From a virus (Duplodnaviria > Caudoviricetes): a DNA stretch of 56,408 nucleotides. The DNA lies in IMG/VR virus record IMGVR_UViG_3300032156_000011, positions 1 to 56,408 of that record, one strand, 5' to 3'. The notes under the pieces are model-generated. The model saw only the letters and a program-made list of their open reading frames with translations. It was not told the DNA's origin and did not search any database. The position numbers and the translations under genes were made by a program. Positions 6,788-56,408 of the stretch are shown here, piece by piece. Each line of letters begins with the position of its first letter. Position 1 is the stretch's first letter.

Positions 6788-8085
6788 GTGACAGAGGAAC
6801 ATTGAAGGGGGTGCGCCCGCGAACCGGCCTACCCCCGTTGGGGACAATCCGGCTCGGTTTGCGCAAGCCGGGGGGAGGGGCGATGGCGACGGAGTACTTT
6901 GTGCTCCGTGACGCCCCGGACGTTGCTGACGCGCTCGGTACGAATACGCCGACAGAGATCGAGGTCGTGTTGCTCGGCAACGGGATTACCGAAAACGTGG
7001 TTTCGTTTTTCCAGGTGTTTGCCGGCGGTGTGGCCGGGAAGCGGGGGTTTCTCATTTGCCAGGGTGACGGCGGCGAGATGGAAACCCTGTACCCCCACAC
7101 CATTAAGGAAAAGGACGGCAAAACCGTCGTCGGCAATGGGGCAGGCGACCAGCGGGTCGCCAACGGTATCGCGCAGGTGGACTTCCGCCTTGTCTCAGGC
7201 GGGGAGACGATTCAGTTTCACCCTGGCGACCGGGTGACGTGCCCCGGAAAGAGCAACATGGGACGGTACTTGCACTGCGCTGCCTGTAGCATGCGAACCT
7301 ACCTGCACGTATACCCGGTGTGCGTCGCCAAGCCTGGCAAGCAGGAGATCGGCGTGTACAAAATCTCTACCGGGTCCTGGTACTCCTGGTCCCAAATCCT
7401 GGCGACTTTGGAGGTCGTCCATGCCAAAGCTGGCAGGGTTTCTGGTATTCGCTACATCATGCGCATTGTCCAGCGCGACCGCCCATACCCCGGAGAGGAC
7501 AAGAAGCGGCACATGACGACAAAGCCCGCTTTTGAGTTGATTCCCCTGGGCATGGACTTTGATCGCCTGCTACAACTGGAGCGTGATGCCGTCTTGCGCG
7601 CCCTGCCTGCCCCGGATGATGACGACACGTTTGACGCCGACCTGGTGGTAGAGGATGAAGAGATCCCGGGTGATGGTGATGCGGAGGGGGTAAAGACGAC
7701 CCCCACCCCCACCCCGCTGGCTTCTCAGCGCCCCTACCTTCCCACGACCATCCTCCAGCAGATGCGCCAGCAGTCCGGCGACTGGGTGCAGGGCGTGCTG
7801 GCGGACTGGTCGGACGCGCGCAAGGGGAACACGGAGCAACGCATACCGCCGCCGCCGGAAGAACTCCAGGCGGTATTCGACTTCCTGGGAGACGACATGG
7901 TGGTCGTCGCGGGCTACCTTTTCGACACCACCCCCGACGGCATGAGCGCCGGGGAGGTCGGTGCGTTGCTCATTTTGATCGAGCAAGAGGAATTGGCGCG
8001 GGCAGAAGTGGCGCAGATCGTTGCGCTGGCGGCGGCTGAGTTGTCCGCGCAGAGTGAGGCCGGCAGAGAGCCGGGGGAGGGGTAG
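6784..8085 (+). CDS. Recombination directionality factor-like (Gp3-like) protein
   Basis: N-terminal LPPLGTIRLGLRK...TEYFV motif, Cys cluster, GVYKISTGS; acidic C-terminal part. Confidence 0.65.
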   Translation: MSDRGTLKGVRPRTGLPPLGTIRLGLRKPGGGAMATEYFVLRDAPDVADALGTNTPTEIEVVLLGNGITENVVSFFQVFAGGVAGKRGFLICQGDGGEMETLYPHTIKEKDGKTVVGNGAGDQRVANGIAQVDFRLVSGGETIQFHPGDRVTCPGKSNMGRYLHCAACSMRTYLHVYPVCVAKPGKQEIGVYKISTGSWYSWSQILATLEVVHAKAGRVSGIRYIMRIVQRDRPYPGEDKKRHMTTKPAFELIPLGMDFDRLLQLERDAVLRALPAPDDDDTFDADLVVEDEEIPGDGDAEGVKTTPTPTPLASQRPYLPTTILQQMRQQSGDWVQGVLADWSDARKGNTEQRIPPPPEELQAVFDFLGDDMVVVAGYLFDTTPDGMSAGEVGALLILIEQEELARAEVAQIVALAAAELSAQSEAGREPGEG

Positions 8086-10023: not shown

Positions 10024-10435
10024 AAGCACTCGACCTGGTAGAGGCACGCCGCGCAGAGTTGGCCGCACAAGAGGCCGCCGAAAAGGAGCGCAGGCAGCAG
10101 GTAGAGGCCGAGCGGGGGCGCCTCGTCCGGGATGTCTACCAGCCGCAGGTCGTCGCGCTGCTGGTTGGACTTGGCCTGGACGCTGAAGAGATCGCGGCGG
10201 GGGTGTCCCTCACACCCCAGACGTGGTTCAAGGGCACCACACCTTACAGCAATGTGTACCCCTTGCTGTCAATTCCGGGATTCAAACGGATCGGCGTGTC
10301 GCTGCTTTTCCGAATCGGCAGCGGCTTAGAGATGGCCGAGAAAAGTCACCCGTTTTTCATAGCTGAAGCGGACTGGACCGCGAAAAGTTTCGACACCATC
10401 GCCGACGCTCTGTGTTTCGCGCAGGAGGTGAAGCC

Positions 10436-10439
<4 letters not shown>
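10020..10439 (+). CDS. Hypothetical protein
   Basis: ATGA coupling. Confidence 0.7.
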
Positions 10440-10950
<511 letters not shown>

Positions 10951-10954
<4 letters not shown>

Positions 10955-13926: not shown

Positions 13927-14915
13927 CCGCCGAATTGCCGCCGTTCACCCCCTCATTCGATTGGGTGCGGGATGGGTTGGGGGACACGTCCGCCAGGGTC
14001 TACGGCGCAGTGTTCCGGTTCTGCCAAATGCGCGAGGGTGTTTGCCGGGCAGGACTTGACGAGATCGCCCGGCGCGCAGGCGTATGCAGAAGGACGGCCA
14101 AGACCCACCTGGACTTGCTGGTAGACCTGAAGTGCATTGCCGACCAGACCCCCAATCTACGAAACCACCCCCACCGATACACGGTAGCGGGGTGTAAGAG
14201 ATTCACAGTGCAAGAGTTGCACAGTGCAAGGGCTGCATTGCTACAGTGCAAGAGTTGCACCCCCACAGTGCAACAGTTGCCTACTGACAGTGCAACAGTT
14301 GCACTAGAGGATACATACAACCAAGAGACGAGAGAAGAGACCGCGCCCCCCTCCCCTGCCGCCATTGACGATTTTCCATCTGACGAGACGCTGGCCGCGC
14401 TTCTACGGGATACCGAGGAACTTGAAAAGCGCAGACGTGACGCTGAGACCGTCAAGCGGTTCAAGGCAGATTTTCCCCCAGGCACAGTTGGCGACGGTCG
14501 GGGGATGCGTAAGGGAGACCGAACGCCATATCAAGAAGACCTGGAAAACCCCCTCGTTGCCGCCGTTTTCGATGCGCTGGACGGCTTGGACGACGTTCCA
14601 GGGGGGCTTATCACGCATACCGATGATGAACGGCGGGTGTGTTCCGAGAAGATAGTCAGGCGGTTCAGAGCGGTTACGCCTGAGCAGATAACCTGGGGCG
14701 TCCGGTTGTGGGGCGTCACCAACTGGCGCGAGGGGGCAACGACGCTGTACAGTAAGGGCGTTCCTGCTGAGATCGCGAAATCAATAGCCGCAATCGTCGC
14801 GGCTACAGGCAGGGGTGAGGACCCGGAGCAGGTCGTGCAGGCCGCGCAGGAGAGGGCGCGGGGTAAGGCCGGCCCCGCTGAGATACCACTTGCCGACCAA
14901 ATGAGGATGGTATGA
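13923..14915 (+). CDS. Phage replication initiator (N-terminal HTH)
   Basis: ARVYGAVFRFC...CRAGLDEIARRAGVCRRTAKTHLDLL; directly upstream of DnaB; contains iterons. Confidence 0.8.
   Translation: MTAELPPFTPSFDWVRDGLGDTSARVYGAVFRFCQMREGVCRAGLDEIARRAGVCRRTAKTHLDLLVDLKCIADQTPNLRNHPHRYTVAGCKRFTVQELHSARAALLQCKSCTPTVQQLPTDSATVALEDTYNQETREETAPPSPAAIDDFPSDETLAALLRDTEELEKRRRDAETVKRFKADFPPGTVGDGRGMRKGDRTPYQEDLENPLVAAVFDALDGLDDVPGGLITHTDDERRVCSEKIVRRFRAVTPEQITWGVRLWGVTNWREGATTLYSKGVPAEIAKSIAAIVAATGRGEDPEQVVQAAQERARGKAGPAEIPLADQMRMV
14205..14304. repeat. Putative replication origin iterons
   Basis: Five ACAGTGCAA copies at 14205, 14221, 14243, 14265, 14287; most extend to the near-palindrome GTGCAA(G/C)AGTTGC. 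Confidence 0.75.
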
Positions 14916-16225
14916 GCCAGTCAATAGCGCCCCCATCTGATCCGACTTTCGAGGAGCTCGTCATAGCCTCCCTGCTCCTCGACCCGACTGCCATTGCCGC
15001 AACCGCCGACCTGTTGAGCGCGTCAGATTTCTACGTCCACCAGAACGGTGCGGCGTTCCGGGCAATCGTGTCCCTGGACGCCAGCGGGCGCGACGTGGAC
15101 CCGGCTACCGTCCAGGTTACAATGGCAGCGGATGGGGTAGAGGTCGGCATGGATTGGTTGGCGCTATTGCTCGATTCTGTGCCAACCGCCCTGAACGTCC
15201 CGACGTATGCGAGACGGGTTGCTGATTTGGCCTACCGACGCCGGGCTATCGAGGCGATGTCTCAGGCCGTCGCGTTCGCCTATAACGAGAAGGCCGACCA
15301 GGGCCAGGTAGAGGCGGCGGTAGAGGGGGCAATGCGTGCGGCGCGGAACGGTACGTACACGGCGCGGGCAGCCTCGGCGCTGGAATCCGCCAACCTGGTG
15401 ACGGGGGCGGCTGAGGATTGGGCAGCCCACCCGCTGAAGCCTGGGCAGGTGCGGGGGATTTCGACGGGACTGGCCGACCTGGACACCCTGTTGTATGGGT
15501 TGGGAGTTGGATTGCATTTAGTAGCGGCGCAACCATCTGTCGGCAAGACAGCGTTTTGCTTACAGGTAGCCGCGAATGTGGCGACGGCTGGCGGGCGGGT
15601 GGTCTACTTCTCTTCCGAGTCCGGGCATGAGGATATTGCCATGCGCTTGATTTCTGGAAAATGTGGGATATACCTGAAGGACATTCTTAACGGTCTAGAT
15701 CATGAGGACTATCTGCGCTTTCTGGCGGCGGCGACGTGGTTCTCCGAATTAAGGTGGGAGACTATTGAGGGGGCTTTGTCGGCGCGGCAGATCGGGCGAG
15801 AACTGCGCATCCGGGGTGACGTGACGCTGGCCGTCGTGGACAATTTGGAAGTCACCACATCCGCCAGCGGAGGTAACGATAAGGATTATGTTAAACTGCG
15901 CTCGACGGCCTATGCTCTCATGGATGTGGCAAACGAGAATAGGTTGCCGCTTATCCTCACGATGCAGGCGGGGGTTAAGCAGACGGACAGTCGGCCAGAT
16001 CGCAGGCCAACTTTGGCGGACCTGTATGGCTCAGATGGGCCGGCGCAGGCTGCGCACGTCGTCCTGCTTCTACACCGCCCCGACCGCTGGCAGTTTGATC
16101 CCAGTCAGTTAAAACACGAAATTGAGGCGCAGTGCTGGAAAGACAAAATACACCACACTGGTCTTGGGCGCATGTGCGTTTTCCAGTTCTGGAAGCAGGG
16201 CCAGGTACGAGACAGGGCGAAGTAG
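14912..16225 (+). CDS. dnaB: DnaB-like replicative helicase
   Basis: N-terminal EELVIASLLLD...DFY; GISTGLADLD; AAQPSVGKT Walker A; RPTLADLYGSDGPAQAAHVVLLLHR. Confidence 0.92.
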   Translation: MSQSIAPPSDPTFEELVIASLLLDPTAIAATADLLSASDFYVHQNGAAFRAIVSLDASGRDVDPATVQVTMAADGVEVGMDWLALLLDSVPTALNVPTYARRVADLAYRRRAIEAMSQAVAFAYNEKADQGQVEAAVEGAMRAARNGTYTARAASALESANLVTGAAEDWAAHPLKPGQVRGISTGLADLDTLLYGLGVGLHLVAAQPSVGKTAFCLQVAANVATAGGRVVYFSSESGHEDIAMRLISGKCGIYLKDILNGLDHEDYLRFLAAATWFSELRWETIEGALSARQIGRELRIRGDVTLAVVDNLEVTTSASGGNDKDYVKLRSTAYALMDVANENRLPLILTMQAGVKQTDSRPDRRPTLADLYGSDGPAQAAHVVLLLHRPDRWQFDPSQLKHEIEAQCWKDKIHHTGLGRMCVFQFWKQGQVRDRAK

Positions 16226-20295: not shown

Positions 20296-20679
20296 GTGAT
20301 GACGGTAGCAAATGAGGCCATAGATAGAGCACTGCGCCAAATTACAAAGTTGCGGGAGACGTTCCCCGCCAACGACCCGAGCAAATTTGATTACGCCATG
20401 CGCCTCATGGAAATGGAAGTCATGATGCTCGGTTTCGACGTGATAGCCGACGCGATACGCCAGCCGGTGCGTGTGACCATCGTGCAAGAGGATGACGGGG
20501 AGTTGGACTTGCCGAAAGCGGCGGCGCTGGCCCGGCGCGTTGCGGACTTCACCGCCTACCTTGCTGAAAAAATGGCAGGCGACGCGGACGCCGTGCGAGT
20601 GGACGGGTGGGCGCAAAGCGTTGCAGATTCGCTGGCGAACCTGCCGGACTGGGCGGGAAAGATGACAGTGAGGGGGTGA
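20296..20679 (+). CDS. Hypothetical protein
   Basis: Abuts upstream stop. Confidence 0.7.
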   Translation: MMTVANEAIDRALRQITKLRETFPANDPSKFDYAMRLMEMEVMMLGFDVIADAIRQPVRVTIVQEDDGELDLPKAAALARRVADFTAYLAEKMAGDADAVRVDGWAQSVADSLANLPDWAGKMTVRG

Positions 20680-21036
20680 GTGATGCAAAGGAAAAAGGTA
20701 TGGCGGTACTACTGCGACTTTTGCGGGCGGGGGATGTGTTCAAAAATAGCAATGAGAAATCATGAGTTTGGTTGCACAATGAACCCCGACCGTGTTTGCA
20801 GCGTCTGCTCTAAAGTTGGTAAGGTTCAAACCACACCCTCCATAATACGAAATGCCTTGAATGATGGTGGTATAGATGCTGCTGAAGAAGCTGCCAACTT
20901 TTGCCCCGTTTGTGTTTTTTCCGCACTGCGTTTTGAGGGTGTGTTGAGGGATTACCCGTACTTTGAATTGAAGCGCCGTTTAGATAGCTTTTTAGATGAG
21001 TGGCGGGACCAAGAGCAAGAAGGATTGGTGTGGTGA
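20680..21036 (+). CDS. Cys-rich Zn-finger protein
   Basis: YYCDFCG...HEFGCTMNPDRVCSVC...CPVC. Confidence 0.75.
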   Translation: MMQRKKVWRYYCDFCGRGMCSKIAMRNHEFGCTMNPDRVCSVCSKVGKVQTTPSIIRNALNDGGIDAAEEAANFCPVCVFSALRFEGVLRDYPYFELKRRLDSFLDEWRDQEQEGLVW

Positions 21037-22467: not shown

Positions 22468-22797
22468 ATGCCTAGAAAACACCCGGAAAACCGCATAAAA
22501 TATATCATGCTCATAGAAGGCCACAGGGTGGAATACTCGTACAGCTTGTACACCGTCCTTTCCAGTGATGGTGTGTACGGACACCCGGACAGGCACGGTG
22601 ATCGTGTCGTGTGGCGCTCTGACCGCGATTTCACACCTGCTGGTGGGGTCTATGGCCTGGTGGACGATTTTAACGCCAAGTTGCGGGAAGAGAAGCTCCG
22701 GCGCAAACTCGAAAAGCGGGCAGAAGATAGGAAAAGGAAAGAGGAGGAGCGCATACAGCAAAACGGCGGGTACAGGCAGGGGGTGCTATTTGAGTAG
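22468..22797 (+). CDS. Hypothetical protein
   Basis: GGAGG RBS. Confidence 0.65.
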   Translation: MPRKHPENRIKYIMLIEGHRVEYSYSLYTVLSSDGVYGHPDRHGDRVVWRSDRDFTPAGGVYGLVDDFNAKLREEKLRRKLEKRAEDRKRKEEERIQQNGGYRQGVLFE

Positions 22798-23902
22798 GGT
22801 GCGGGTGTACGCAGGCGACGCGCTGGCAGTGATGCGCAGGCTACCCGCCGGGTCATTCGACCTGGTTGCAACCGACCCGCCGTACTGTGGCGTCAAGGAA
22901 GAGAAGTGGGACAACCAGTGGGCCAGCCCCGCCGACTACCTGGCATGGATCGGCGACCTGTGCGCAGAGTGGGCGCGGCTGCTGCGCCCCACCGGGTCGC
23001 TTTACCTTTTCGCGTCTCCTCAGATGGCGGGGCGGGTGGAGTGCAAGGTCGCTGAGACGTTCAACGTCTTGAATAACATCGTTTGGGTGAAAGGGGACGC
23101 CAACGGCGGTGGTTTGTGGGCAAGAGCAGAAAAGGACGCGCTGCGCTCGTTTTTTCCGCGCTCCGAGCGCATCATATTCGCTGAGCACTATGGCGCTGAC
23201 AGTTACGCCGCCGGTGAGTCGGGATACCAGGCCAATTGCGACCAGGCGCGGGGATTCGTATTTGACCCCATCCGCGTGTACCTGCGCTCGGAGTGGGAGC
23301 GGGCGGGGATGAAAGCAGAGGACGCCAACACCGCGTGCGGAACGGCAAGCATGGCTGGACGCCACTATTTCACGCAATCGCAGTGGTGCATGCCGACCAG
23401 GGAGCACTACCAGGCAATGCAGAGGTACGCCAACCGCAACGGCGGTGAGTTCTTGCGCCGGGACTATGAGTACTTGCGCCGGGACTACGAGGACTTGCGC
23501 CGGGACTACGAGGACTTGCGGGAAGAATACGAAAGCCTGCGCCGCCCGTTCACCGTCACCGCCGACGACCAGTACACCGACTGCTGGACGGCGTTCCCGA
23601 CGGTTGCGGCCTACCCCGGAAAACACCCCTGCGAGAAACCCGCCACGCTCATGGAACACATCATCCTCACCAGCACGCTACCCGGTGCCCGGGTCCTGGA
23701 CCCGTTTTGCGGAAGCGGGGCGACCGGGGCGGCCTGCAAGAGGTTGGGGCGCGACGGGGTGTTGGTGGACAACGACCGCCACTGGGTAGAGGTTGCGCGT
23801 GACAGGGTAGCACACGCTGAGGATCGCCAGCTTGAGTTGCCGGGGTTGCAACAGGAACGGCGCTGCAGCAGGAGTTCGGCGGGACAGATGCGCTTGCTGT
23901 AA
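22790..23902 (+). CDS. N6/N4 DNA methyltransferase (beta class) with internal insertion
   Basis: GDAL..M, DLVATDPPY, NIVWVK, HPCEKP, VLDPFCGSG; TTG start inferred. Confidence 0.9.
   Translation: MSRVRVYAGDALAVMRRLPAGSFDLVATDPPYCGVKEEKWDNQWASPADYLAWIGDLCAEWARLLRPTGSLYLFASPQMAGRVECKVAETFNVLNNIVWVKGDANGGGLWARAEKDALRSFFPRSERIIFAEHYGADSYAAGESGYQANCDQARGFVFDPIRVYLRSEWERAGMKAEDANTACGTASMAGRHYFTQSQWCMPTREHYQAMQRYANRNGGEFLRRDYEYLRRDYEDLRRDYEDLREEYESLRRPFTVTADDQYTDCWTAFPTVAAYPGKHPCEKPATLMEHIILTSTLPGARVLDPFCGSGATGAACKRLGRDGVLVDNDRHWVEVARDRVAHAEDRQLELPGLQQERRCSRSSAGQMRLL
23452..23521. repeat. 21-bp tandem repeat encoding LRRDYE(D/Y) heptads
   Basis: About 3.3 copies directly visible. Confidence 0.9.
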
Positions 23903-33919: not shown

Positions 33920-35503
33920 TTACGACACGCCGCCGACGGGAAGCCCTTCCTCAATGAATACGAGGGACGTTGCGTCGGAAACCTCGCCGGCGGTGAAAAA
34001 GTGGTTGTAATTGTCGCACGGAAGGACAGCCACGCCGCCGGTGTAGTTGAAGACGGTCACGGCGTTGTTGGGGTCAAAGTACGTCTCCCAGTCCCACCCG
34101 CCGTTTACCGTGCGGAAGGTGACGACCAGGCGGGCCGTCCCGGTGTTCACAGCGCCACAGATGTAGCCGCAAAACTCGTCGGTGAACTTGATGTCGCCCA
34201 GGTTTTCGATTGTCCCGCCGGGAAAGTTGAGCGCGGCGTACAGTCGGGGCAGGTAGTCAACCCAGTTGCGCCCGCCGTCTGTCGTCCTGAACAGTTGGGC
34301 GATAGACGTGTTGGTGTCCTGTCCACACAGCCACACCTTGAACTGGGTGTGGACGCTCGCGCCGTTGTAGATCGAATCTGCCGTCCCGGGGGCCGTCGGG
34401 GAGTTGTTCCAGTGATCCCCGCCGTCCACGGTGTAGACCAGCAGTTGCAGGCCTCCCCCGGCCCAACCGTGATTCTCGTCCACAAAGTCAATGCAGCGGA
34501 TCGGCTCTCCGGCGGGGGAAGCGACGACGGTTTGCTGAACCCAGGTCGCCGCCGCGTCCACGGACTTGTAGATGCCGCCGGCGTTCGTTCCGAGCCACAT
34601 GCGGTTGTGCTTGGGGGCAAACAGCGCGTTGCCCCAACTGACGAACTCGCCGTCTGGGGTAGGAAGGTCAACCAGGTGCCACGTCACCGCCCCGTCGTCT
34701 GTGTACCCGACCTCGGCGGGGTTCCCGGCATCGGTCGTCCCTCGCGCAACGAGAACGCGGGACTGGCGGTTTCCCGTCAAGAAACACTCGACGGCGCTGG
34801 CTGCCTCGGTGACTGCGAACGGCAGGGCGGCACCGACGGTCCAAGTCTTACCAGCATCGTGGCTGAACCAGACGTTCGCCTTGATCGCAACGTCCCCGTC
34901 CGTCACAGCCACCAGGTCGTTGCAGGCCAGCACTTGCGGCCCGCACGCGCTGGCGCACTGGGAGACGCCGCACGAGGCGATGTCGCGCAGCGGCTTGGCC
35001 TCCGTCAATCCGTGCGTAGTGATGATCAGCGGCCAGTAGCGGGGGGCATTCGGCTCGGCCTTCAGGTCGAACGACTGCATGGAGTCGGTAGCCCCGTCAC
35101 CCTCAGCGACGGCACGTTTCATGAAATTGGTCGTCTTGGCGGCGGTGATGAACGGGTATTTCAACACCTGCCCACGGACGTAGGCGGAGAAGATGTCCGC
35201 AGGGCTTCCGCACACGTCGTGCGCGTAAAAGATGAACGGGCAGCGGTTCGCCAAAAACCGCTCCAGCCACGTCTGGTTCTGCTGCAATCGCGGCTCGATG
35301 GTGACGGTAGCGGCGGAGGGAGCTCCCTGCGTTCGGTGCCCGGACACGTAACGGTCATTCTCGTCCAGGCACATTGGCCCGGATACATCCCCTGGCGTCT
35401 CCCCGATCTCACCGACGTTGGCGCACAGGAGGGGGTAGGTCGGATCTCCTGGGGCAGATTGTACGAACACGGCCCCGTTCTTGTCTGTCAAAAAGTTTGG
35501 CAT
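33920..35503 (-). CDS. Major tail tube protein with C-terminal BNR beta-propeller
   Basis: Position; SHDAGKTW, TDDGAVTW, TVDGGDHW, TTDGGRNW, TVNGGWDW repeats. Confidence 0.7.
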   Translation of the reverse strand: MPNFLTDKNGAVFVQSAPGDPTYPLLCANVGEIGETPGDVSGPMCLDENDRYVSGHRTQGAPSAATVTIEPRLQQNQTWLERFLANRCPFIFYAHDVCGSPADIFSAYVRGQVLKYPFITAAKTTNFMKRAVAEGDGATDSMQSFDLKAEPNAPRYWPLIITTHGLTEAKPLRDIASCGVSQCASACGPQVLACNDLVAVTDGDVAIKANVWFSHDAGKTWTVGAALPFAVTEAASAVECFLTGNRQSRVLVARGTTDAGNPAEVGYTDDGAVTWHLVDLPTPDGEFVSWGNALFAPKHNRMWLGTNAGGIYKSVDAAATWVQQTVVASPAGEPIRCIDFVDENHGWAGGGLQLLVYTVDGGDHWNNSPTAPGTADSIYNGASVHTQFKVWLCGQDTNTSIAQLFRTTDGGRNWVDYLPRLYAALNFPGGTIENLGDIKFTDEFCGYICGAVNTGTARLVVTFRTVNGGWDWETYFDPNNAVTVFNYTGGVAVLPCDNYNHFFTAGEVSDATSLVFIEEGLPVGGVS

Positions 35504-35517
35504 TTCTCTGCTCCTTT

Positions 35518-35952
35518 CTACTTTCTCGATTCGTATTCACGGGCAGCCTGGTGAATCGTCCCGGCGTTCGGGACGTTGGCGGCCTCGTTGATTGCAACCA
35601 TCACGCGGGAACAATTGCGGCTAACGTCGCCCGATTCCCAGATACCCCGCGTGCGCAGCGCCTTTGCCAAGGGGACGACCATGCTGTCCTGAACGCGCCC
35701 GGCGAGCGCAGATTCCCAGTTCACCCCTACCGGCGCACCGGCTTCCAGGATGTCGGCGGGGCACGAGTCGCCGACCACAGCATCGCGGGGAACGTAGGCG
35801 CGGTGTGCGTCGTCCGCCGTGCGCCACTCCACGAGGGCGCTTTGCCCCTGTGCCCGTATCACCTTCACAGGAATGGAGACAGGCGCACGCTTTGCGCGGG
35901 CCGGCGTAGGGCCGGCGGCGTCTTTTTCGTTTTCGTCTTTTTCGTCTGTCAC
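35518..35952 (-). CDS. Hypothetical virion-module protein
   Basis: Coupled in head-tail operon. Confidence 0.65.
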   Translation of the reverse strand: MTDEKDENEKDAAGPTPARAKRAPVSIPVKVIRAQGQSALVEWRTADDAHRAYVPRDAVVGDSCPADILEAGAPVGVNWESALAGRVQDSMVVPLAKALRTRGIWESGDVSRNCSRVMVAINEAANVPNAGTIHQAAREYESRK

Positions 35953-36482
35953 TTCGCTTTCCTCTTTCCGCGAGCAATCGCGTTTTTCATTTCGCGGGCG
36001 AACCAGGTTTTAGACCACCTGGCTATGGCGGGTATGAAAGGGCGGGCCTTTATGCCTTTGATGTTTTCTTTCTTGATTCGCTTCACGAAAACCATAGGCC
36101 CGCTGGACGTTCCTGGACCCTTGTAACCAGGTCCCCGTACAGTGGTGTGTGGCTTGTAATTGGCGGGGAATGCCAGCACCCCGCCCGGCTTCTTTGGAAC
36201 GATGTCCTTTTTAGGTGGCTTCGTTCCCTCAGTTACCCAAATCCAGTATTTTTTGTTGGGACCTACTGCCCACACCCGGACGGTTATCCCCTCTTTGGTT
36301 ACGAACTTTGCCGCCTTAAATTCTGGTGGGTGGTCCCACGGCGCGACGATGTTTTGATGGTACTTTAGCACACGCGGCTTGACCACATCGTCAATCGTCT
36401 TCTTTACCTCGTCGGCTATCAGCGTCCACTTGGGATGCCCACTGGTGGCCTTCCGTATCGGCCTGAACAGAACGTTCGGCAT
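35949..36482 (-). CDS. HK97 gp10-like tail completion protein
   Basis: YWIWVTEGTK...GIKARPF motif; GGAGG RBS. Confidence 0.75.
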   Translation of the reverse strand: MPNVLFRPIRKATSGHPKWTLIADEVKKTIDDVVKPRVLKYHQNIVAPWDHPPEFKAAKFVTKEGITVRVWAVGPNKKYWIWVTEGTKPPKKDIVPKKPGGVLAFPANYKPHTTVRGPGYKGPGTSSGPMVFVKRIKKENIKGIKARPFIPAIARWSKTWFAREMKNAIARGKRKAK

Positions 36483-36780
36483 TTTCCTCCCTGAACGATT
36501 CTCTCGGCAGTCCGGGAACGTCGCGCACGTCGAAAAGTTGGCGACGGCCTGCCCGCACTTCGTAATGGCAGCACGAGGCCGACCCCACCCCCTGGTAGTC
36601 AGCCAGGGCGACAAGCAGCTTGAACCCGACCTCGCCCGGGAACTTGTCCCCGGACTTGCGCGTCCAGGCCAGCGAGAGGGGGAGACCTCCCCCACCACTA
36701 CCGCCGCCGCCTCAGCCCCAGGGGGACAACCAGCGCGGCCTGCACAACTCGTGCGCCGATTGAACCGCGTCGAAATCCAT
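36391..36780 (-). CDS. ORF with in-frame TGA at codon 23 (candidate selenoprotein / readthrough), 129 aa
   Basis: ATG overlaps the upstream TGA (TGATG); TGA at 36712-36714; frame stays open to 36391; SECIS-like hairpin downstream. Confidence 0.5.
36678..36693 (-). promoter_or_regulatory. SECIS-like hairpin GGGGG-AGGUCU-CCCCC
   Basis: Stem starts 18 nt after the in-frame UGA; AGGUCU apex as in the E. coli fdhF SECIS. Confidence 0.45.
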
Positions 36781-37460
36781 CACGGCGTCCTGGACCTCCG
36801 CCACGCATTTTCCCGTATCCTCCCCTCGGAGAACTCGTTGTAGTTGACCTCAGCAACGTCCAGGACCGGGTAGTCGCGCCCGGTTGCTCCCTGACAGACG
36901 GTCAACTCCAACTTGCGCAGCTTTTCAAGTTCGCCGCTGGCAAACTCGTTGTATGACGCCCGCACTTCGTCTGACAGGTCCACACCGATGCAGGTGCAGT
37001 TGTAGAACGCTCCCGCCAGGAATACGGCGATCTGACCCAGGAACGCCAGAGCGTCGGCGCTCTTTGGGCAGTTCAACTGATTCGAGGCGGCGAGGGCGGC
37101 GGATACCTTCGTTGACGTAAAGTTTAGGTATCCTTCGATGGTGGACCGCTGCTGCGCCGTCAGCGCAACGGCCCGGTAGTCGTCACCGGTGTCCCACAGG
37201 TTGTCCGTCCCGCCGATGAGCGAGGCCGTCAGCGTGTTGTAGGTCACGGCGGTTATCGTTCCCTGGCTGTTGTCGGTCAGGTTGTAGACGACCTGACCGA
37301 CGTTTGGAACGAACCCCATCTTCTGGAACTGCGCTCCGTTGTCAAGCAAGACGGTATCTCCGTTCCCGCCAGCGTGCTTTCCGGTCAGGACGGAAGCCGC
37401 ACAGAAGAACTGTGCCCACTCCCACGCTTCGGCATACCTGGTGGTCATGTTAAAGTCCAT
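36780..37460 (-). CDS. Head-tail adaptor-like protein with inserted beta domain
   Basis: RYAEAWE N-terminus and helical C-terminus; position after capsid genes. Confidence 0.65.
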   Translation of the reverse strand: MDFNMTTRYAEAWEWAQFFCAASVLTGKHAGGNGDTVLLDNGAQFQKMGFVPNVGQVVYNLTDNSQGTITAVTYNTLTASLIGGTDNLWDTGDDYRAVALTAQQRSTIEGYLNFTSTKVSAALAASNQLNCPKSADALAFLGQIAVFLAGAFYNCTCIGVDLSDEVRASYNEFASGELEKLRKLELTVCQGATGRDYPVLDVAEVNYNEFSEGRIRENAWRRSRTP

Positions 37461-38940: not shown

Positions 38941-40068
38941 CTACGCAGTCGTGCCGCTGCTGTAATAGATGCCCAGGGGATTCGTCACCCCCACCAGGGC
39001 GGGGTCGTCCCACGCGCCAACAATGTCCTCTACGTGGAACACGATGTCGCCGGTGCGCGAGTCGCCCATCGTGAAAGCGTCCGGGGCCGTTCCGCTCATG
39101 ATGCGGATGGTCGGCTGGTCCATGTAGACGACCGGCCCTGTCCACCCCTGCATGCCGACGACCGTGACGGTGTTGCAGCTCTCCGGCCCGGCGAACAGGT
39201 ACCAGGGGACGTTCGGGTTGGTGTAGGTGATGTAGGGGTCGATGTGGACGTTGGACTGGGGGAGGAAGGTCGCCATCGTGTTACCGTTCTGACCGCCGTA
39301 CTGAATCAGGTTTGAGAGGATTTCACTGGCCTGGATTTGCAGGATCGGCGGAATGACCAGGTGCAAACTGCGGAACGACAGCGGGCGGCCCTGCGGGTCT
39401 ACACGGCTCTGCATGGCCCCGACAGCGATGGTCAAGTTTGCCAGCGTCAAGCGGCCAGTGCCAGAAAACACCGGGGCGAGACCGACCAGGGTCGCTTGGG
39501 TGATGGGGTTGTCGTAAAGCGCCGACACCCACTCGTCTTTCCACCACAGCGCGGCCTGCGCCAATTCGACCGGGAATCGCATGAACTGCCCCAGGTCGTC
39601 GTTCTGGAACACCTGCCATGAAAAGTCGAATTGCCGGGAAAACTCCCCGACGCCGTACTCGATCATGTCCTCGTGGACCTCACCCGCCTCAGCGCCCTGC
39701 TTCTCGCCACGCGGGAGAAGCCCACCGGGGCGGCTCATGCGGAACCGCTGCACCTGGCGAAAGTCGGGCGCGGTGTCGGGGGTGGTGTACGCCCGCCACG
39801 TCCCGCCCAGGATTTGATACTGCTCCAGGAACATCCGCGAGATGGGGGCCTGGAAGTAGTCGAAAAAGTGGGCGGTGGTCATGGTTTCCGCCAACCGCGC
39901 CGGCCCCATCCGCGTCCCATCGCGCTCGATCTCGAGCAGCAGGCCCAGGTGTGTGTCCAACTCGGCGTCCGAGCGGGCGGGGGAGTTCACTTCTTTCCGG
40001 TCGGATTCTGACAGTCCGCGAAACTGCTTGTCCGCGTACTGTTGAATGAACTGTAAAATGTGTTGCAT
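38941..40068 (-). CDS. Major capsid protein (HK97 fold, Mu gpT-like)
   Basis: DFRQVQR, FSRQFDFSWQVFQNDDLG, HLVIPP; position after scaffold and cement genes. Confidence 0.85.
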   Translation of the reverse strand: MQHILQFIQQYADKQFRGLSESDRKEVNSPARSDAELDTHLGLLLEIERDGTRMGPARLAETMTTAHFFDYFQAPISRMFLEQYQILGGTWRAYTTPDTAPDFRQVQRFRMSRPGGLLPRGEKQGAEAGEVHEDMIEYGVGEFSRQFDFSWQVFQNDDLGQFMRFPVELAQAALWWKDEWVSALYDNPITQATLVGLAPVFSGTGRLTLANLTIAVGAMQSRVDPQGRPLSFRSLHLVIPPILQIQASEILSNLIQYGGQNGNTMATFLPQSNVHIDPYITYTNPNVPWYLFAGPESCNTVTVVGMQGWTGPVVYMDQPTIRIMSGTAPDAFTMGDSRTGDIVFHVEDIVGAWDDPALVGVTNPLGIYYSSGTTA

Positions 40069-42534: not shown

Positions 42535-43277
42535 GAGGCAAAATCTAGGTCGTATGTGTCACCTCTATTGAATGGCGAGACGAATGTACCCACCCTCCAA
42601 CCGAGCATGAATAGAGACGGCTTCCAGTACGGAGGCGTCCACCCACACAGCGAGGGCGCGCTCGGCCATAGCAGTTCTGTGGCGGCCGGCATGGGGCGAA
42701 GCAACTTGGATTCGCTCTGCCAAATCTCCTCATCGGTGTACGCGGTGCTATCCACTGTAACGCCACGCACGCGGGCCAGGCGCAGCTTGCCAATGTGCGT
42801 GAAGTTGGCGAGAAACGATTGCACCAGTTCCTTGTTACCGATGCAGCGGGCCTCATAGGTGTTGCACACCCGCGTCGGGGTCGGCATGCGCCGTTCCATC
42901 CAGGGACCGTTCCGAGTCGTCAAGTTCGCCTTGTTGTGCATGCTTCCGTCCGAGTTGCGCTTGTGGCGGATATAGGTATCCTCGACGTTCGGGCCAACCG
43001 GGTATAGAATTGAGGCGGCCCACAATGGGAAACCCGCCTCACTGCGCCACAGCATCTTTAGCGGCAACGGTATCCAGTACCCCTTCTCGCAATCAGGAAT
43101 CAAGTGGCCCTCCGTCGCTCTCTCCACCAGAGCGCGGGCCAGCAGGCCGTCAAAGTGAATCTGGTCGTAACTGACCATGTGGCTATTCGGCGCGAGATTG
43201 AACGTCACGCGCAACGGCTCGTAAGCGGCCTGCGCGAACGGCACGGTGTACTGGTCAAGTTCCGGCAAGTGGTTCAT
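42531..43277 (-). CDS. csf3: Type IV CRISPR-associated Csf3 (Cas5-like RAMP)
   Basis: PLRVTF.L...IHFDGLLA, PLPL...WAAS, HIGK.R, LLRPMP, GWTPPYW. Confidence 0.8.
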   Translation of the reverse strand: MNHLPELDQYTVPFAQAAYEPLRVTFNLAPNSHMVSYDQIHFDGLLARALVERATEGHLIPDCEKGYWIPLPLKMLWRSEAGFPLWAASILYPVGPNVEDTYIRHKRNSDGSMHNKANLTTRNGPWMERRMPTPTRVCNTYEARCIGNKELVQSFLANFTHIGKLRLARVRGVTVDSTAYTDEEIWQSESKLLRPMPAATELLWPSAPSLCGWTPPYWKPSLFMLGWRVGTFVSPFNRGDTYDLDFAS

Positions 43278-44062
43278 ATCATCCTCCGTATTTTTGGAAA
43301 GTCAATCGCCAGCGCATCGAACTTATCTGGAGCGATTTGCTTCAGGAAGGAGAACCGACCCAAGTTTGATGCGCTCTCGCCCAAGAGCATCGAGACTCGC
43401 CACTGCTTTCGCGGTATCCCAAGTTTTGCGTAAGTATCGTACACCGCATTGTACTGCAAGTTGCGTGATGCAATGTAGGCCCAAATGTCATAATCGTCCC
43501 ACCTGGAAATAGGGGTGAAGTGGTAATGCGTCTCCCCTTCTACGAATTGATACTTTATCGGGTAGAACTGTCCGTTCACGAGACTGGACATTCTGCGCCC
43601 GGCGCTCTCCCCCGCCCGCAACCCCATCGTAACCGTGTCCAGATTGAACATCCTCACGAAACGGTAACTTGGCTCCCCCACCATGAAGGCGAAAAAGTCA
43701 ACCGTGTCGTCTACCACTTCTGCCGCGTGTCCCCAATACCCGAATTTGCGGCACAGATCGGCAAGCGTCTGTTCCGATTCTAGTACCGTCACGGTTGGAT
43801 AGTGGTCGCGCAAGAGTTGGGCGTTCTGGTCGTACTCGGTCTCGCTTCCGCTAGAGAAGTATGCGGCGGGCACGTCCGGGAATATCCGCCGCACCAGGTC
43901 GAGCGTAACCGTGCTATCCTTCCCCGTGCTGAACGATACGCCGACCAGATGCTCTGCTACCACCTGAGCTATCAAGTCAATGGCGCGATCCACCTTCCGC
44001 TTGAACGCGGGAAGGCGGCTGTATGCCAGGTCGCCTATCGTCACAGCGCGAGTTTCGGTCAC
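43274..44062 (-). CDS. cysH: CysH-like (PAPS reductase family) protein of type IV-B locus
   Basis: VSFSTGKDSTV PP-loop, MGLRAGESAGR, TPISRWDDYDIWAYI...YNAVYD. Confidence 0.85.
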   Translation of the reverse strand: MTETRAVTIGDLAYSRLPAFKRKVDRAIDLIAQVVAEHLVGVSFSTGKDSTVTLDLVRRIFPDVPAAYFSSGSETEYDQNAQLLRDHYPTVTVLESEQTLADLCRKFGYWGHAAEVVDDTVDFFAFMVGEPSYRFVRMFNLDTVTMGLRAGESAGRRMSSLVNGQFYPIKYQFVEGETHYHFTPISRWDDYDIWAYIASRNLQYNAVYDTYAKLGIPRKQWRVSMLLGESASNLGRFSFLKQIAPDKFDALAIDFPKIRRMI

Positions 44063-54846: not shown

Positions 54847-56133
54847 TCAATCCTCAGCGCCTACCCGCTCAATCTCCAAGTCCGGGAAGGCCGTCGCCAT
54901 GCGCTCTAGCGTGACGGCGCAGTATTTCGGCAAGAGTTCTATGCCCAGTCCGCGCCGATTGTTCTTGTGCGCTGCAACGATGGTTGTGCCGCTTCCCAGG
55001 AATGGGTCGGCTATGGCGTCCCCATCATCTGAATAGTCGAGGATGATGCGGGAAAGCAACTCGACCGGTTTTTGAGTTGGCGCGTACCGCTCCCCCTCTT
55101 TACCAATCAAGCCATTGTAAACGACGGTGTACTTTTTAACCGAATGTCGCCCCGCCACGTTTGTCCAGGCCAACTCGCAATCCCCGAACGTTGGCATGGT
55201 GTTCTCTTTGTCCCACACAATCCAGTGTCCGCCAACAGGAATCAAGTCGGTGAAAAAGTTGCCCCCGAATATGATGGCTGTTTCTGCGCTTGCCAATAAG
55301 ATATCAAATGTCTGTTTCTCAGGGCGCTTACCGTCCCACGAATCCTTGTACTGGCGTCGGGGTATTTGTTTCCCACTTCCGCCAAAACCATCCGCCCCGC
55401 CGAATCCCTTGTCGCGCCCCACCCCATAGGGGGGATCGGCTACACATAAGGACGCCTTCCCCACGCCGGCCACACCGAGCAACCGCGCCCAGGTCTCTTG
55501 CTCCCTGCAATCTCCACAAATAATGACGTGCTCCCCGATGCGCCACAGGTCGCCGACCTCCACGCGCCACTTCTCTTGCAACTCCTCAGCGCGGTCAACA
55601 GGCGCATCGTCACCCGCGCCCGTCTCGCTCCCATCATCATCCTGCTCCTCAGCGGTCAGCATTGCGCCCAAGTTCGCCGCGTCGTTATTCCACGCGGTCA
55701 ACTGCTCGGCGTCCAGCCCCCACTCCTGCAACTGCGCAGCGTCCCACCCGGCCAGGGCGTCCCAGTCCCAAAACCCGGCGTCGGTGTTGGCAACGATGTT
55801 TGCCCGCTGGCAGGTGTCCGCGTCCCATCGCACCTGGCGGTAGGGGATGCTCCCGCCAGGCCAGGTAATGAAGCCGACCCGGACGGTCCCTTGAGCATCG
55901 GGGGCGTGCTCCTCGTCAATGAACTCCACGCGCACCCCGCGCTTGCCGATAGCCCGCATGTGTTGGTTGCCGCTGATAATCTGGTCAGAGTTCAGATCGT
56001 GAACAACTCCGCCCAGTTCGCCCAAGTCGGCCAGGGAGGAGCGCAGAGCGTCGAGTCGCTTCTTGGAAATACGGCGCGGGTTTTCGGCGAACGGAACGCC
56101 GACAGCGAACGGGGAAGGTGGTACTGTACTCAT
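54847..56133 (-). CDS. ParB-like N-terminal domain fused to N6/N4 DNA methyltransferase
   Basis: NPRRI...IISGNQ; GDLWRIGEHVIICGD, ADPPYG, WDK, PTQKPV, DPFLGSGTT. Confidence 0.88.
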   Translation of the reverse strand: MSTVPPSPFAVGVPFAENPRRISKKRLDALRSSLADLGELGGVVHDLNSDQIISGNQHMRAIGKRGVRVEFIDEEHAPDAQGTVRVGFITWPGGSIPYRQVRWDADTCQRANIVANTDAGFWDWDALAGWDAAQLQEWGLDAEQLTAWNNDAANLGAMLTAEEQDDDGSETGAGDDAPVDRAEELQEKWRVEVGDLWRIGEHVIICGDCREQETWARLLGVAGVGKASLCVADPPYGVGRDKGFGGADGFGGSGKQIPRRQYKDSWDGKRPEKQTFDILLASAETAIIFGGNFFTDLIPVGGHWIVWDKENTMPTFGDCELAWTNVAGRHSVKKYTVVYNGLIGKEGERYAPTQKPVELLSRIILDYSDDGDAIADPFLGSGTTIVAAHKNNRRGLGIELLPKYCAVTLERMATAFPDLEIERVGAED

Positions 56134-56140
56134 GATTCGT

Positions 56141-56169
56141 ATTATATCAGAAAACACGGTGAGAGTCAA
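56141..56169 (-). promoter_or_regulatory. Sigma70 promoter of packaging operon (probably leaderless mRNA)
   Basis: TTGACT-17 bp-TATAAT; ATG lies 7 nt downstream with no RBS. Confidence 0.8.
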
Positions 56170-56281
56170 GAAGCAATTTCCGGCGCGTGCTGGCGACCGG
56201 GGGTACCTGGCAGGCTGTCCCAGGTCGGCGACCTGGCGCAGATCGGCGACCTGCTGGCGGACGCGAAACGCAGCGCAATCG

Positions 56282-56408
56282 GGTCGAAAGTGACAAAGTT
56301 CCCCCAAACATCCGTGCTAAGCTTGTGTTACAGTCCGTAACGCAATTGTAATTTTTCCGTAACGGCACGATATAGAATAGATGCTATAATTGAATCATAG
56401 AGAGAAAG
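56282..56408. repeat. Copy of the 140-bp repeat (continues through 61-73 on circularisation)
   Basis: Identical to 4424-4550. Confidence 0.95.

Follow-up and report, generated by a model that had tools for sequence, protein, structure and literature searches.

An in-frame TGA conserved ahead of a small-protein gene in two distantly related phages: possible recoding and its alternatives

The frame that continues past an in-frame TGA in the phage genome analysed here (36711-36391, minus strand) is, to judge from its homologs, a genuine gene whose ~100-aa product belongs to an unnamed small-protein family of phages, and what is new here is, on the same comparative grounds, that the post-TGA frame is a real gene and that the TGA is conserved in a distant relative. 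All positions refer to the window, i.e. the whole stretch of 56,408 nucleotides that was analysed, which is a complete free virus genome of ~60% G+C for which no close cultured relative was found. The gene and its conserved TGA are real, there is no canonical start behind the TGA ahead of the first conserved motif, and there is nucleotide-level constraint around the TGA. Something other than plain initiation is supported, and the gene probably needs unusual translation. Our preferred reading, to which we give a rough probability of 0.4 from comparison of sequences, is that the UGA is recoded in some way; the residue decoded, as we infer it, may be selenocysteine (Sec), or Trp or Cys from a near-cognate tRNA.

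The layout of the locus is largely as first described. ATG 36780-36778 (minus strand) indeed overlaps, in a TGATG, the TGA stop 36782-36780 of the upstream 226-aa gene, its frame encodes MDFDAVQSAHELCRPRWLSPWG followed by TGA 36714-36712 (minus strand), and the same frame then remains open for 106 codons up to the closing TGA 36393-36391 (minus strand). A GGGGG/AGGTCT/CCCCC hairpin (36693-36678, minus strand) is likewise present and begins 18 nt past the in-frame TGA. The gap in the operon, however, which the initial annotation had put at ~230 bp, measures 297 nt from the upstream stop to ATG 36482 of the 177-aa gene. The features are as follows (G001 is a distant syntenic phage, L105, L106 and L108 are further relatives, L001 is a second IMG/VR contig and X4 a strain variant).

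36780 to 37460, minus strand: upstream 226-aa gene, connector-like by position, with homologs in G001, L105, L106 and L108
36715 to 36780, minus strand: 22-codon leader frame, ATG 36780 TGATG-coupled, with an in-frame GTG at 36783; covered by no homolog
36712 to 36714, minus strand: in-frame TGA, the same in L001, with its G001 counterpart at L006:2432-2434
36700 to 36724, minus strand: block around the TGA, 23 of 25 nt identical between the window and G001
36696 to 36698, minus strand: +1-frame GTG, 11 nt past the block's GAGG, opening a 249-aa ORF that runs into the 177-aa gene
36678 to 36693, minus strand: hairpin with a 6-bp stem (GGGGGA/UCCCCC) and a GGUC loop, predicted top of a longer irregular stem-loop (~36648-36724)
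36670 to 36672, minus strand: CTG, sole in-frame alternative start of table 11 from TGA to motif, with GGAGG 13 nt upstream
36638 to 36743, minus strand: low-divergence stretch, at least 2 differences in 106 nt in strain X4, which is ~10% divergent on either side
36478 to 36642, minus strand: conserved core, F-P-G-E-x-G-F to about residue 78, with five beta strands (alignment and AlphaFold model)
36391 to 36711, minus strand: small-protein-family ORF, 106 codons plus TGA stop 36393-36391
35949 to 36482, minus strand: downstream 177-aa gene, ATG 36482 with a GGAGG Shine-Dalgarno site; its G001 homolog is 41% identical

The small-protein ORF overlaps the downstream gene by 92 nt, and neither PHROGs nor Pfam gave a match for the read-through protein or its two neighbours. 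In related phages the family gene has its place in the head-tail module, occupying the same slot in G001 and following the 177-aa homolog in L108. TGA is, as had been pointed out, an ordinary stop genome-wide (it is the commonest, closing 47 of the 83 genes called crudely, often within an ATGA overlap), and with 38 of 89 calls in G001 ending on it as well, global recoding was rejected. So was a phage-borne suppressor or Sec tRNA, because the window and G001 genomes contain zero tRNA genes. A plus-strand 154-aa ORF (36379-36843) was also discarded as the mirror frame of the real gene, a six-class codon model favouring the minus frame.

That the gene is genuine is argued by its small homologs, which match the post-TGA part only, and by the family residues kept in both the window and G001. 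The family comprises 30 database homologs of 49-107 aa. In phmmer, nine of the 11 matches are 55-100-aa proteins that align only to query residues 22 onward, with single-sequence E-values from 1.6e-6 to 6e-4, and a profile search gave 27 matches reaching down to 1.7e-25; two long phmmer matches, P0004 (3,699 aa) and P0010 (778 aa), were left out of account because they are low in complexity or doubtful. The protein is predicted to consist of a Gly-rich disordered N-terminal tail, a small beta domain and an acidic C-terminal tail that aligns with the tails of 12 homologs. The motifs F-P-G-E-x-G-F, Y-x-F and D-x-R-D lie in the beta domain, between the tails predicted to be disordered, and G43, Y50, D61, R63 and D64 are invariant in the 32-row alignment. 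In an AlphaFold model, blocks spanning residues 31-70 reach a pLDDT of 92-95, and Foldseek, run with this model on PDB and BFVD, found no match at E <= 0.001, small beta domains at E 0.01-0.03 coming closest. Several searches came back empty: tblastn of the read-through protein against 50,697 phage records (zero matches), a word-based protein search with the whole read-through protein as query (zero matches), the ESM Atlas (no usable match), genome-contig scans with two family alignments (no confirmed match) and a scan of IMG/VR for the 'LLEC' subfamily (no match). Longer, fused forms of the protein were not found in a dedicated search, which is weak evidence. Neither database search returned a protein from this locus, meaning that gene callers miss this gene whatever its mechanism, and the locus thus stands for a class of phage genes overlooked for want of a canonical start.

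G001, whose neighbouring proteins are 34-41% identical to those of the window, keeps the in-frame TGA at the same place in the same slot, an outcome in favour of the initial proposal under one of the checks suggested with it, in a comparison where G001 is the sole TGA-bearing genome among relatives with readable DNA and where only two independent genomes show the arrangement. The TGA is in frame in both phages, 24 (window) and 23 (G001) codons ahead of the F of the motif, and the intervening stretch cannot otherwise be aligned. The two small proteins are 40% identical, keep all five invariant and most near-invariant residues, and have F-P-G-E-x-G-F-K in common, encoded with synonymous differences. 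The 16-nt core of the block around the TGA is one of just three syntenic exact matches of at least 16 nt between the two genomes, the remaining two falling in the terminase and major capsid genes. This 16-mer occurs in 87 stretches of IMG/VR and the block motif 94 times in all loci collected, a family ORF lying behind nine of the 94, all nine being either copies of the same two contigs or the locus of the window itself. Read in the +1 frame, the block gives P-G-A/T-E-A-A-A-V, with three differences that are silent or conservative, and the frame of its constraint is therefore ambiguous.

Strain variation was followed in contigs from four runs of four different studies, one of them near-identical and perhaps the source of the window itself. 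The L001 contig is 100% identical over 450 nt, TGA included, and no change at 36712-36714 is found among the strain variants listed, so that neither an assembly slip nor, very probably, the sequencing error that the initial annotation had named as a possible undoing accounts for the TGA. Strain X4 has 16 changes in 155 nt of the gene core versus at least 2 in 106 nt around the TGA; the latter keep the frame sense (GGC>GGT and Gly>Ser), and those in the core are distributed over third, second and first codon positions as 9, 5 and 2. The sole leader change among the strain variants listed (36744) is Cys>Arg in the leader frame and silent in the +1 frame. Two further strains show 3-nt gains or losses in a GGT repeat, which shift the distance from UGA to hairpin by ±3 nt.

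How the gene is started is the crux of the matter. In neither the window nor G001 does the frame contain an ATG, GTG or TTG codon from the TGA to the first conserved motif, and the first in-frame canonical starts past the TGA (GTG 36588 and L006:2531, respectively) lie behind it; since F-P-G-E-x-G-F-K is conserved, translation must begin upstream of the motif. The window leader has GGAGG 11-14 nt upstream of its start, and the G001 leader, which necessarily overlaps the preceding gene by 58 nt, has 28 codons from GTG L006:2348 with GGAG-N5 upstream. These leaders have only their final P-W in common. Codon statistics over such short windows are unreliable, as in the last 20 codons of the 226-aa gene they favoured the leader frame, though G001 conserves that tail.

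The N-termini of the homologs bear on this question. Six of the 30 have a long form, in which Met and 0-3 residues are followed by C-x-C, and the first Cys aligns with the TGA at the same spacing to the motif, so that another of the initially suggested checks, for Cys in homologs, comes out in favour in those with the long N-terminus. In the MAFFT alignment, the U of the window and that of G001 share an invariant column with the first Cys found in the six long-form homologs and in an L106 candidate, a weak seventh (hhalign probability 17%), the region being of low complexity and U having been entered as C in the aligners, which favours a Cys column. In BLASTP, the read-through product P0001 is collinear with P0008 from the U/C position into the core with one gap, and the G001 read-through product is collinear with P0029 into the core from 6 residues after that position. 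Because the other 24 of the 30 are without the long N-terminus, it is dispensable and a short form would suffice. The 22 codons upstream of the TGA are covered by none of the 30 homologs, whose starts lie 1-4 residues ahead of the aligned Cys or downstream of that. A stop of conservation at the TGA, which had been taken beforehand to speak against recoding, is thus found in a sense, since protein conservation ends there.

If the UGA is recoded, ribosomes would start upstream (in the window at ATG 36780, which is coupled to the preceding gene's stop, and in G001 at a GTG with its own Shine-Dalgarno site), and a fraction of them would pass the UGA to yield a leader-X-protein product, with the conserved sequence and structure around the UGA setting the efficiency. 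In favour of such recoding, both genomes have an in-frame upstream start with a frame open up to the stop, and the 25-nt block is 23/25 identical versus 34-41% identity of the flanking proteins. Against it, no homolog extends upstream of the TGA, the leaders share so little, and L108 and L106 have ordinary ATG starts for the family gene. What stands of the original proposal of 'Sec insertion or programmed readthrough' is therefore that some departure from plain initiation is supported; its selenoprotein half is unsupported, with no shared hairpin and no upstream conservation. A phage precedent for read-through is Qbeta, in which a complete, functional protein precedes the stop and has an extension added to it in a low-copy product. 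There, in an RNA phage, leaky UGA read-through of the coat gene gives the minor protein A1 (PMC8310308). The likeness is a phage UGA passed by a fraction of ribosomes for a low-copy product, which is here proposed from sequence; the difference is that in the present dsDNA phage an unconserved leader of 22-28 codons precedes the stop and the functional protein lies wholly behind it. Decoding of the UGA would add a rare example of a recoded stop codon in tailed dsDNA phages, one with the functional protein entirely behind the stop, and through it the amount of a small virion-module protein would be controlled or made to depend on host physiology. As an aside, GGC flanks the UGA on both sides in the window, and in G001 a TAC precedes it and an in-frame TAC follows 8 codons on, which would make stop-hopping possible; a match of this kind has a high probability of arising by chance.

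The rival that survives best, though we consider it unlikely, dispenses with recoding. The TGA would end a short leader ORF or be part of a GAGG ribosome site, the gene would begin at a rare start (CTG 36672 in the window, an ATA just before the motif in G001), and block and stem-loop would form a translational operator opened by leader translation. Translational coupling via leader ORFs and start-site hairpins is common ground in phage operons, and the present locus resembles it in its TGATG-coupled short ORF, its stem-loop holding a GGAGG and its tightly packed late operon, but differs in that a canonical start after the leader is absent in both phages. The CTG, 10 codons ahead of the motif, is near the Met of short-form homologs, whose short N-terminus suffices in 24/30, and its GGAGG lies within the hairpin; the ATA of G001 has AGGA 10 nt upstream, CTGAGG plus 6-7 nt plus ATG serves two other genes (starts 6428 and 54845), and the low strain divergence over 36638-36743 fits the structure of an initiation region. 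This explanation requires, however, two different rare codons at different places in two phages, and it leaves unexplained both the in-frame TGA and the collinearity with long-form N-termini. Spacing is a further difficulty, as Shine-Dalgarno sites in this genome usually lie 3-12 nt from the start and exceed 12 nt in 1 of 42 genes that have one. All 59 genes of a crude start survey possess a canonical start (36 ATG, 17 GTG, 6 TTG), a count that is uninformative on rare starts because the gene finder used accepts only ATG, GTG and TTG.

More doubtful is the specific form of recoding with which the initial annotation began, namely that SelB and Sec-tRNA read the UGA via the downstream hairpin, giving a U-x-G version of C-x-C. 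In bacterial selenoprotein genes, of which E. coli fdhF is the textbook case, the UGA is followed at once by a SECIS hairpin that is read by SelB. The phage locus is like them in having an in-frame UGA in a conserved ORF, a Cys at the aligned position (six of 30 homologs and the L106 candidate), a TGA in the G001 orthologue and, in both genomes, a hairpin past the UGA, within ~30 nt. The GGUC loop of the window, which would match the apex that the initial annotation gives for the fdhF SECIS, is the only GGTC tetraloop among the 122 perfect 6-bp hairpins with 4-6-nt loops that the window contains (61 on each strand), and the sequencing-run labels are of sediment and wetland metagenomes, none of those listed being from RNA. 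The hairpin described as SECIS-like is statistically unremarkable (fold z -0.23, -0.80 and -0.55 versus dinucleotide shuffles), and it is not conserved, the G001 hairpin having an AGAC loop at +19-22 versus the GGUC loop at +28-31; in 60-nt folds, neither the window (z -0.55) nor G001 (z -0.01) beats shuffles. A perfect hairpin of at least 5 bp lies 5-30 nt downstream of 111/787 TGA triplets on the plus strand and 77/640 on the minus strand (12-14%), Rfam found no family at E up to 10 at the window or G001 locus, and the UGA-to-hairpin distance varies between strains, as described above. SECIS-like structures also rise with G+C content (PMC12013277), and this genome is G+C-rich.

Other differences from bacterial selenoprotein genes weigh in the same direction. 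Protein conservation upstream of the UGA is missing, and the site lies 1-4 residues from the ancestral N-terminus in a Gly-rich tail that is predicted to be disordered (pLDDT ~50 in the AlphaFold model), outside any folded redox motif; the second Cys of C-x-C is Gly in both phages, the product is a small virion-module protein rather than a redox enzyme, and neither phage has a tRNA gene. Viral selenoproteins do exist in the form of the glutathione peroxidases of the poxviruses fowlpox and molluscum contagiosum (PMC8310308). The phage gene would be like these in relying on host machinery for a recoded UGA, as proposed here; unlike it, they are captured cellular enzymes of eukaryotic viruses with a eukaryotic SECIS. 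No phage selenoprotein could be traced in a literature search at the level of listings, and phages or viruses go unmentioned in the BSepDB paper. If Sec were used, this would thus be the first phage selenoprotein traceable at that level, and there is a slim prospect that it is the first natural one, with the first Cys of C-x-C replaced by Sec, a product arising solely from ribosomes that begin at the coupled leader and place Sec at the conserved UGA, and its supply dependent on host selenium and Sec machinery.

Further explanations fare worse. We give little credence to a decaying gene, in which the ancestral ATG and first Cys codon would have mutated and an untranslated frame would persist by inertia, the DNA being G+C-rich. 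TGG does stand here at the homologs' Met position and TGA at their Cys position, and the gene is optional among relatives (it is absent from L105 and sits elsewhere in L108), but the window and G001 proteins, for all their divergence, show no loss of an invariant residue and no stop or frameshift, and the X4 core changes favour third codon positions. Less probable still is a start at the +1-frame GTG behind the block (36698; L006:2445) with a -1 shift before the motif. In both phages GAGG is followed, after 8-11 nt, by a GTG of equal relative frame (the distance being 8 nt in G001), a spacing normal for the genome, and the G5 and C5 runs of the window could allow P-site tRNA re-pairing at -1. 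G001, however, is without a comparable run or slippery heptamer, such GTGs arise automatically from GGT-GGN Gly codons, the peptides of the +1 frame are rich in Arg, Ser and Pro and mutually unlike after 8 residues, and the residues of G001 in its own frame resemble long-form homologs from 6 residues past the TGA. Finally, an erroneous TGA, whether from sequencing or from assembly, or a start masked by a 1-nt homopolymer error can practically be dismissed in spite of the flanking runs (C5, G4, G5, C5), because besides the identical second IMG/VR contig the X2 contig (near-identical, and perhaps the window's own source) spans the whole stretch and the X3 and X4 contigs from two other studies span the TGA, because the 1-nt indels listed are a compensating pair in X5 (36758/36762) and net-3-nt groups in X4 (36439/36448 and 36838/36840), none of the indels so listed falling between TGA and motif, and because the unrelated assembly G001 has the same arrangement.

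The window genome is complete (56,408 bp, with direct terminal repeats), has a G+C content of ~60% and contains no tRNA genes. Within its late genes, which lie on the minus strand, the initial annotation had proposed a phage selenoprotein from a start ATG, an in-frame TGA, an open frame behind it and a hairpin. Every one of these elements is borne out in the sequence, while the gap that they occupy, put at ~230 bp, measures 297 nt.

Features of the locus
37460-36780, minus strand: upstream 226-aa gene
36780, minus strand: start ATG of the leader, overlapping the TGA stop of the upstream gene
ATG 36780 to the in-frame TGA, minus strand: leader frame of 22 codons
36714-36712, minus strand: in-frame TGA
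From 18 nt past the TGA, minus strand: hairpin with a 6-bp stem and a GGUC loop
From the TGA to a stop at 36393-36391, minus strand: post-TGA frame of 106 open codons, overlapping the downstream gene by 92 nt
36482, minus strand: start ATG of the downstream 177-aa gene, with GGAGG ahead

As the annotation had held, TGA is a normal stop in this genome, indeed the commonest (it ends 47 of 83 genes in a crude call, in many cases within an ATGA overlap). A separate observation is that the 226-aa and 177-aa genes (35949-37460, minus strand) share one frame in which a single TGA (36782-36780) separates them, this frame being open over the whole gap and giving a 249-aa ORF from GTG 36698; since a distant syntenic relative (G001) lacks the same feature, it is probably a G+C effect.

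Judged from its conservation, the frame behind the in-frame TGA is a real gene. A phmmer search of 1.84 billion representatives with the read-through protein as query (E <= 0.001) returned 11 matches, nine of them proteins of 55-100 aa aligned only from residue 22 on; two, of 3,699 and 778 aa, were set aside. A profile search gave 27 matches, 21 of them additional, for a total of 30 database homologs (49-107 aa, all metagenomic, one bearing an NCBI label as protein of a Phycisphaerales MAG). G43, Y50, D61, R63 and D64 are invariant in the 32-row alignment, F24, G26, E27, G29, L32 and L33 are near-invariant, and the acidic C-tail of the window protein, encoded in the overlap with the next gene, can be aligned to those of 12 homologs. 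With the family alignment as input, AlphaFold predicts a confident five-strand beta domain (pLDDT 92-95 for blocks over residues 31-70) and two tails at pLDDT ~50-60. There are no fold matches at E <= 0.001 among solved or viral structures and no Pfam or PHROG matches to the protein; the family is unnamed, its position in the head-tail module being the one pointer to a role.

The case for the TGA arrangement stands on two independent genomes. The second, G001 (IMG/VR contig 3300035101_000006, completeness estimate 82%), also has no tRNA genes and TGA as its commonest stop (38 of 89), and is syntenic with the window across the structural module (terminase 49% and capsid 54% identical). It carries the family ORF between the same two genes, whose proteins are 33% and 40% identical to those of the window (34% and 41% by MAFFT), and this orthologue keeps an in-frame TGA at its head (L006:2432-2434). 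The distance from the TGA to the F of the F-P-G-E-x-G-F motif, the first that is conserved in the family, is 24 codons in the window and 23 in G001, with unalignable sequence in between. Over this distance, neither phage has an in-frame ATG, GTG or TTG; the first canonical starts lie past the motif in both, and starting there would deprive the protein of the motif as well as of some of its first strand. Translation must start ahead of the motif, with no canonical start past the TGA to serve it in either phage. The two genomes are identical at 23 of the 25 nt of the block around the TGA (36700-36724). They share no more than three syntenic exact matches of at least 16 nt, one being the 16-nt core of this block and the other two falling within the genes for terminase and capsid.

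A long N-terminus, consisting of Met, 0-3 residues and then C-x-C, is present in six of the 30 homologs, and in a MAFFT alignment in which the U of window and G001 was entered as C, the U of both phages and the first Cys of all six fall together in a single invariant column. By BLASTP, the window protein is collinear with one long-form homolog (P0008) from G-U into the core with a single gap, and that of G001 with another (P0029) into the core, beginning six residues past U. Both phages have TGG at the long-form Met position and Gly at that of the second Cys. Because Met aligns with TGG and the first Cys with TGA, both the start and the first Cys codon of the ancestor have changed in window and G001, and these changes persist at a divergence that leaves the family protein only 40% identical.

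The reading we favour, with a probability of about 0.4, is UGA recoding of some kind, in which ribosomes from the upstream start would recode the UGA. As a single ancestral event, recoding would account for the TGA being in frame in both phages and for the conserved block, as well as for the Cys column and for the collinearity with long-form N-termini past the TGA. Its main rival, unlikely in our view but the most serious, is that the translated leader ends at the TGA and a rare start is used further downstream, the candidates being, in the window, CTG 36672, which GGAGG precedes by 13 nt, and, in G001, an ATA that AGGA precedes by 10 nt. The long N-terminus is dispensable (missing in 24 of 30 homologs), structure in the initiation region speaks for such a start, and CTGAGG ribosome sites are used elsewhere in the window genome; however, the two phages would require two different rare starts, and the TGA frame and collinearity would be left to coincidence. 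That the gene has decayed and is no longer functional is improbable, since a dead gene would have lost some invariant residues over the window-G001 distance and all are kept. More improbable still is a start at a +1-frame GTG behind the block followed by a -1 shift, for which G001 has no slip site. The block does read P-G-A/T-E-A-A-A-V in the +1 frame, where each of its three differences is either silent or a conservative exchange, and the sole change that strains show in the leader is likewise silent there, which calls for caution on recoding. The rest of the probability is assigned to no named reading.

Sequencing error has next to no chance of accounting for the arrangement: a second IMG/VR contig is 100% identical to the window over 450 nt at the site, and the TGA at 36712-36714 is unchanged among the differences listed for contigs of four runs from four studies (X2-X5), aligned over 36250-36950 and compared as strains, a list that may lack changes specific to X3 or X5. 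The X2 contig, which covers this whole interval and differs at a single point (36365), is near-identical to the window and possibly its source, and for this reason lends no independent support. The site is spanned by X3 (~98% alike), X4 (~89%) and one X5 contig (~91%). The 1-nt indels among the listed differences are a compensating pair in X5 (36758 and 36762) and, in X4, single-base indels inside net-3-nt groups (36439/36448 and 36838/36840), and none of those listed for X2-X5 lies between the TGA and the motif. Another X5 contig, of 151 nt, matches the window only at 36686-36719 (34 nt, 4 differences) between unrelated flanks and has, on the gene strand, an ATG after a GGAGG-like end; this match could be chance within Gly-codon repeats.

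The X4 differences listed number 20 in 215 nt at the start of the downstream gene, 16 in 155 nt of the family-gene core (nine at third, five at second and two at first codon positions) and two, GGC>GGT and Gly>Ser, in the 106 nt at 36638-36743, where ~10.6 would be expected at a 10% rate (Poisson chance of <=2 ~0.002, post hoc and assuming that every X4 difference up to 36744 is among those listed). This stretch, which points to a constraint at the nucleotide level, coincides with a predicted long irregular stem-loop (~36724-36648) whose 5' base holds the UGA. One GGT unit of the Gly-codon repeat behind the TGA (36691-36694) is lost in X3 and one gained in X5, which keeps frame and hairpin and changes the spacing between UGA and hairpin by 3 nt.

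Within recoding, insertion of selenocysteine is decidedly doubtful. The hairpin presented as SECIS-like is no more stable than shuffles (z -0.23 to -0.80), a perfect 5-bp hairpin follows 12-14% of all TGA triplets in the window genome, the G001 hairpin is at a different place with an AGAC loop, and neither locus has Rfam matches at E up to 10. According to a method paper, SECIS-like predictions increase with G+C and genuine bacterial SECIS elements may differ greatly from one another (PMC12013277), so that the missing shared hairpin weakens selenocysteine rather than excludes it. Conservation on both sides of the UGA, the feature usually looked for, is absent here: none of the 30 homologs reaches upstream of it, and the leaders of window and G001 have only the final P-W in common. 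The UGA itself falls in a predicted disordered Gly-rich tail. No close cultured relatives of the window phage were found, nor any natural phage selenoprotein in the accessible parts of the literature on phage selenoproteins, SECIS and in-frame UGA; the available text of a recoding review names selenoproteins for poxviruses only and read-through for Qbeta (PMC8310308), and the words phage, virus and viral are absent from the BSepDB paper's main text (PMC13326102).

A capsid-based scan identified six more phages, and in three of them the sequence reaches far enough downstream for a judgement. In L108, a family member with an ATG and a strong GGAGGAGG site lies behind the 177-aa homolog, and L105 has no gene in the window's slot, because of which the family gene is optional and movable. 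The slot in L106 holds an 83-aa gene (L106:11313-11564) with ATGA overlaps at both ends, its ATG overlapping the upstream stop, which starts M-S-C-C and has its first Cys in the same MAFFT column as the U of window and G001; weakly related to the family (hhalign E 0.0014, probability 17%), it is possibly a very distant member. Among the genomes examined, the TGA arrangement is confined to the window-G001 clade.

Several minor observations concern other genes. The 226-aa connector-like protein (36780-37460) has an inserted ~80-aa domain at residues ~18-98, which is absent from its G001 orthologue and present in that of L106 (228 aa). The same domain recurs elsewhere in G001 (20516-20755; 41% identity) and inside a protein of 959 aa that a different IMG/VR contig encodes (L002:1563-1778; 49%). 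A 527-aa structural-module protein (33920-35503, minus strand) with BNR/Asp-box and Ycf48-like (PSII_BNR) propeller matches is kept in G001, L105, L106 and L108, directly past the head-tail genes. The major capsid protein (38941-40068, minus strand) has PHROG matches annotated 'major head and protease', and among cultured relatives it comes closest, at 26% identity, to the product of a Methanoculleus virus gene with the annotation Clp-protease-like prophage protein. A long GCC triplet run (10705-10800, plus strand) lies within the gene at 10412-10954, with a similar run in G001 near 25526. Accessory and replication genes at 43274-44062, 54847-56307, 22565-23902, 14912-16225 and 6838-8085 comprise a PAPS-reductase-domain protein, two N6/N4 DNA methylases, a DnaB-type helicase and a Gp3-like recombination directionality factor domain.
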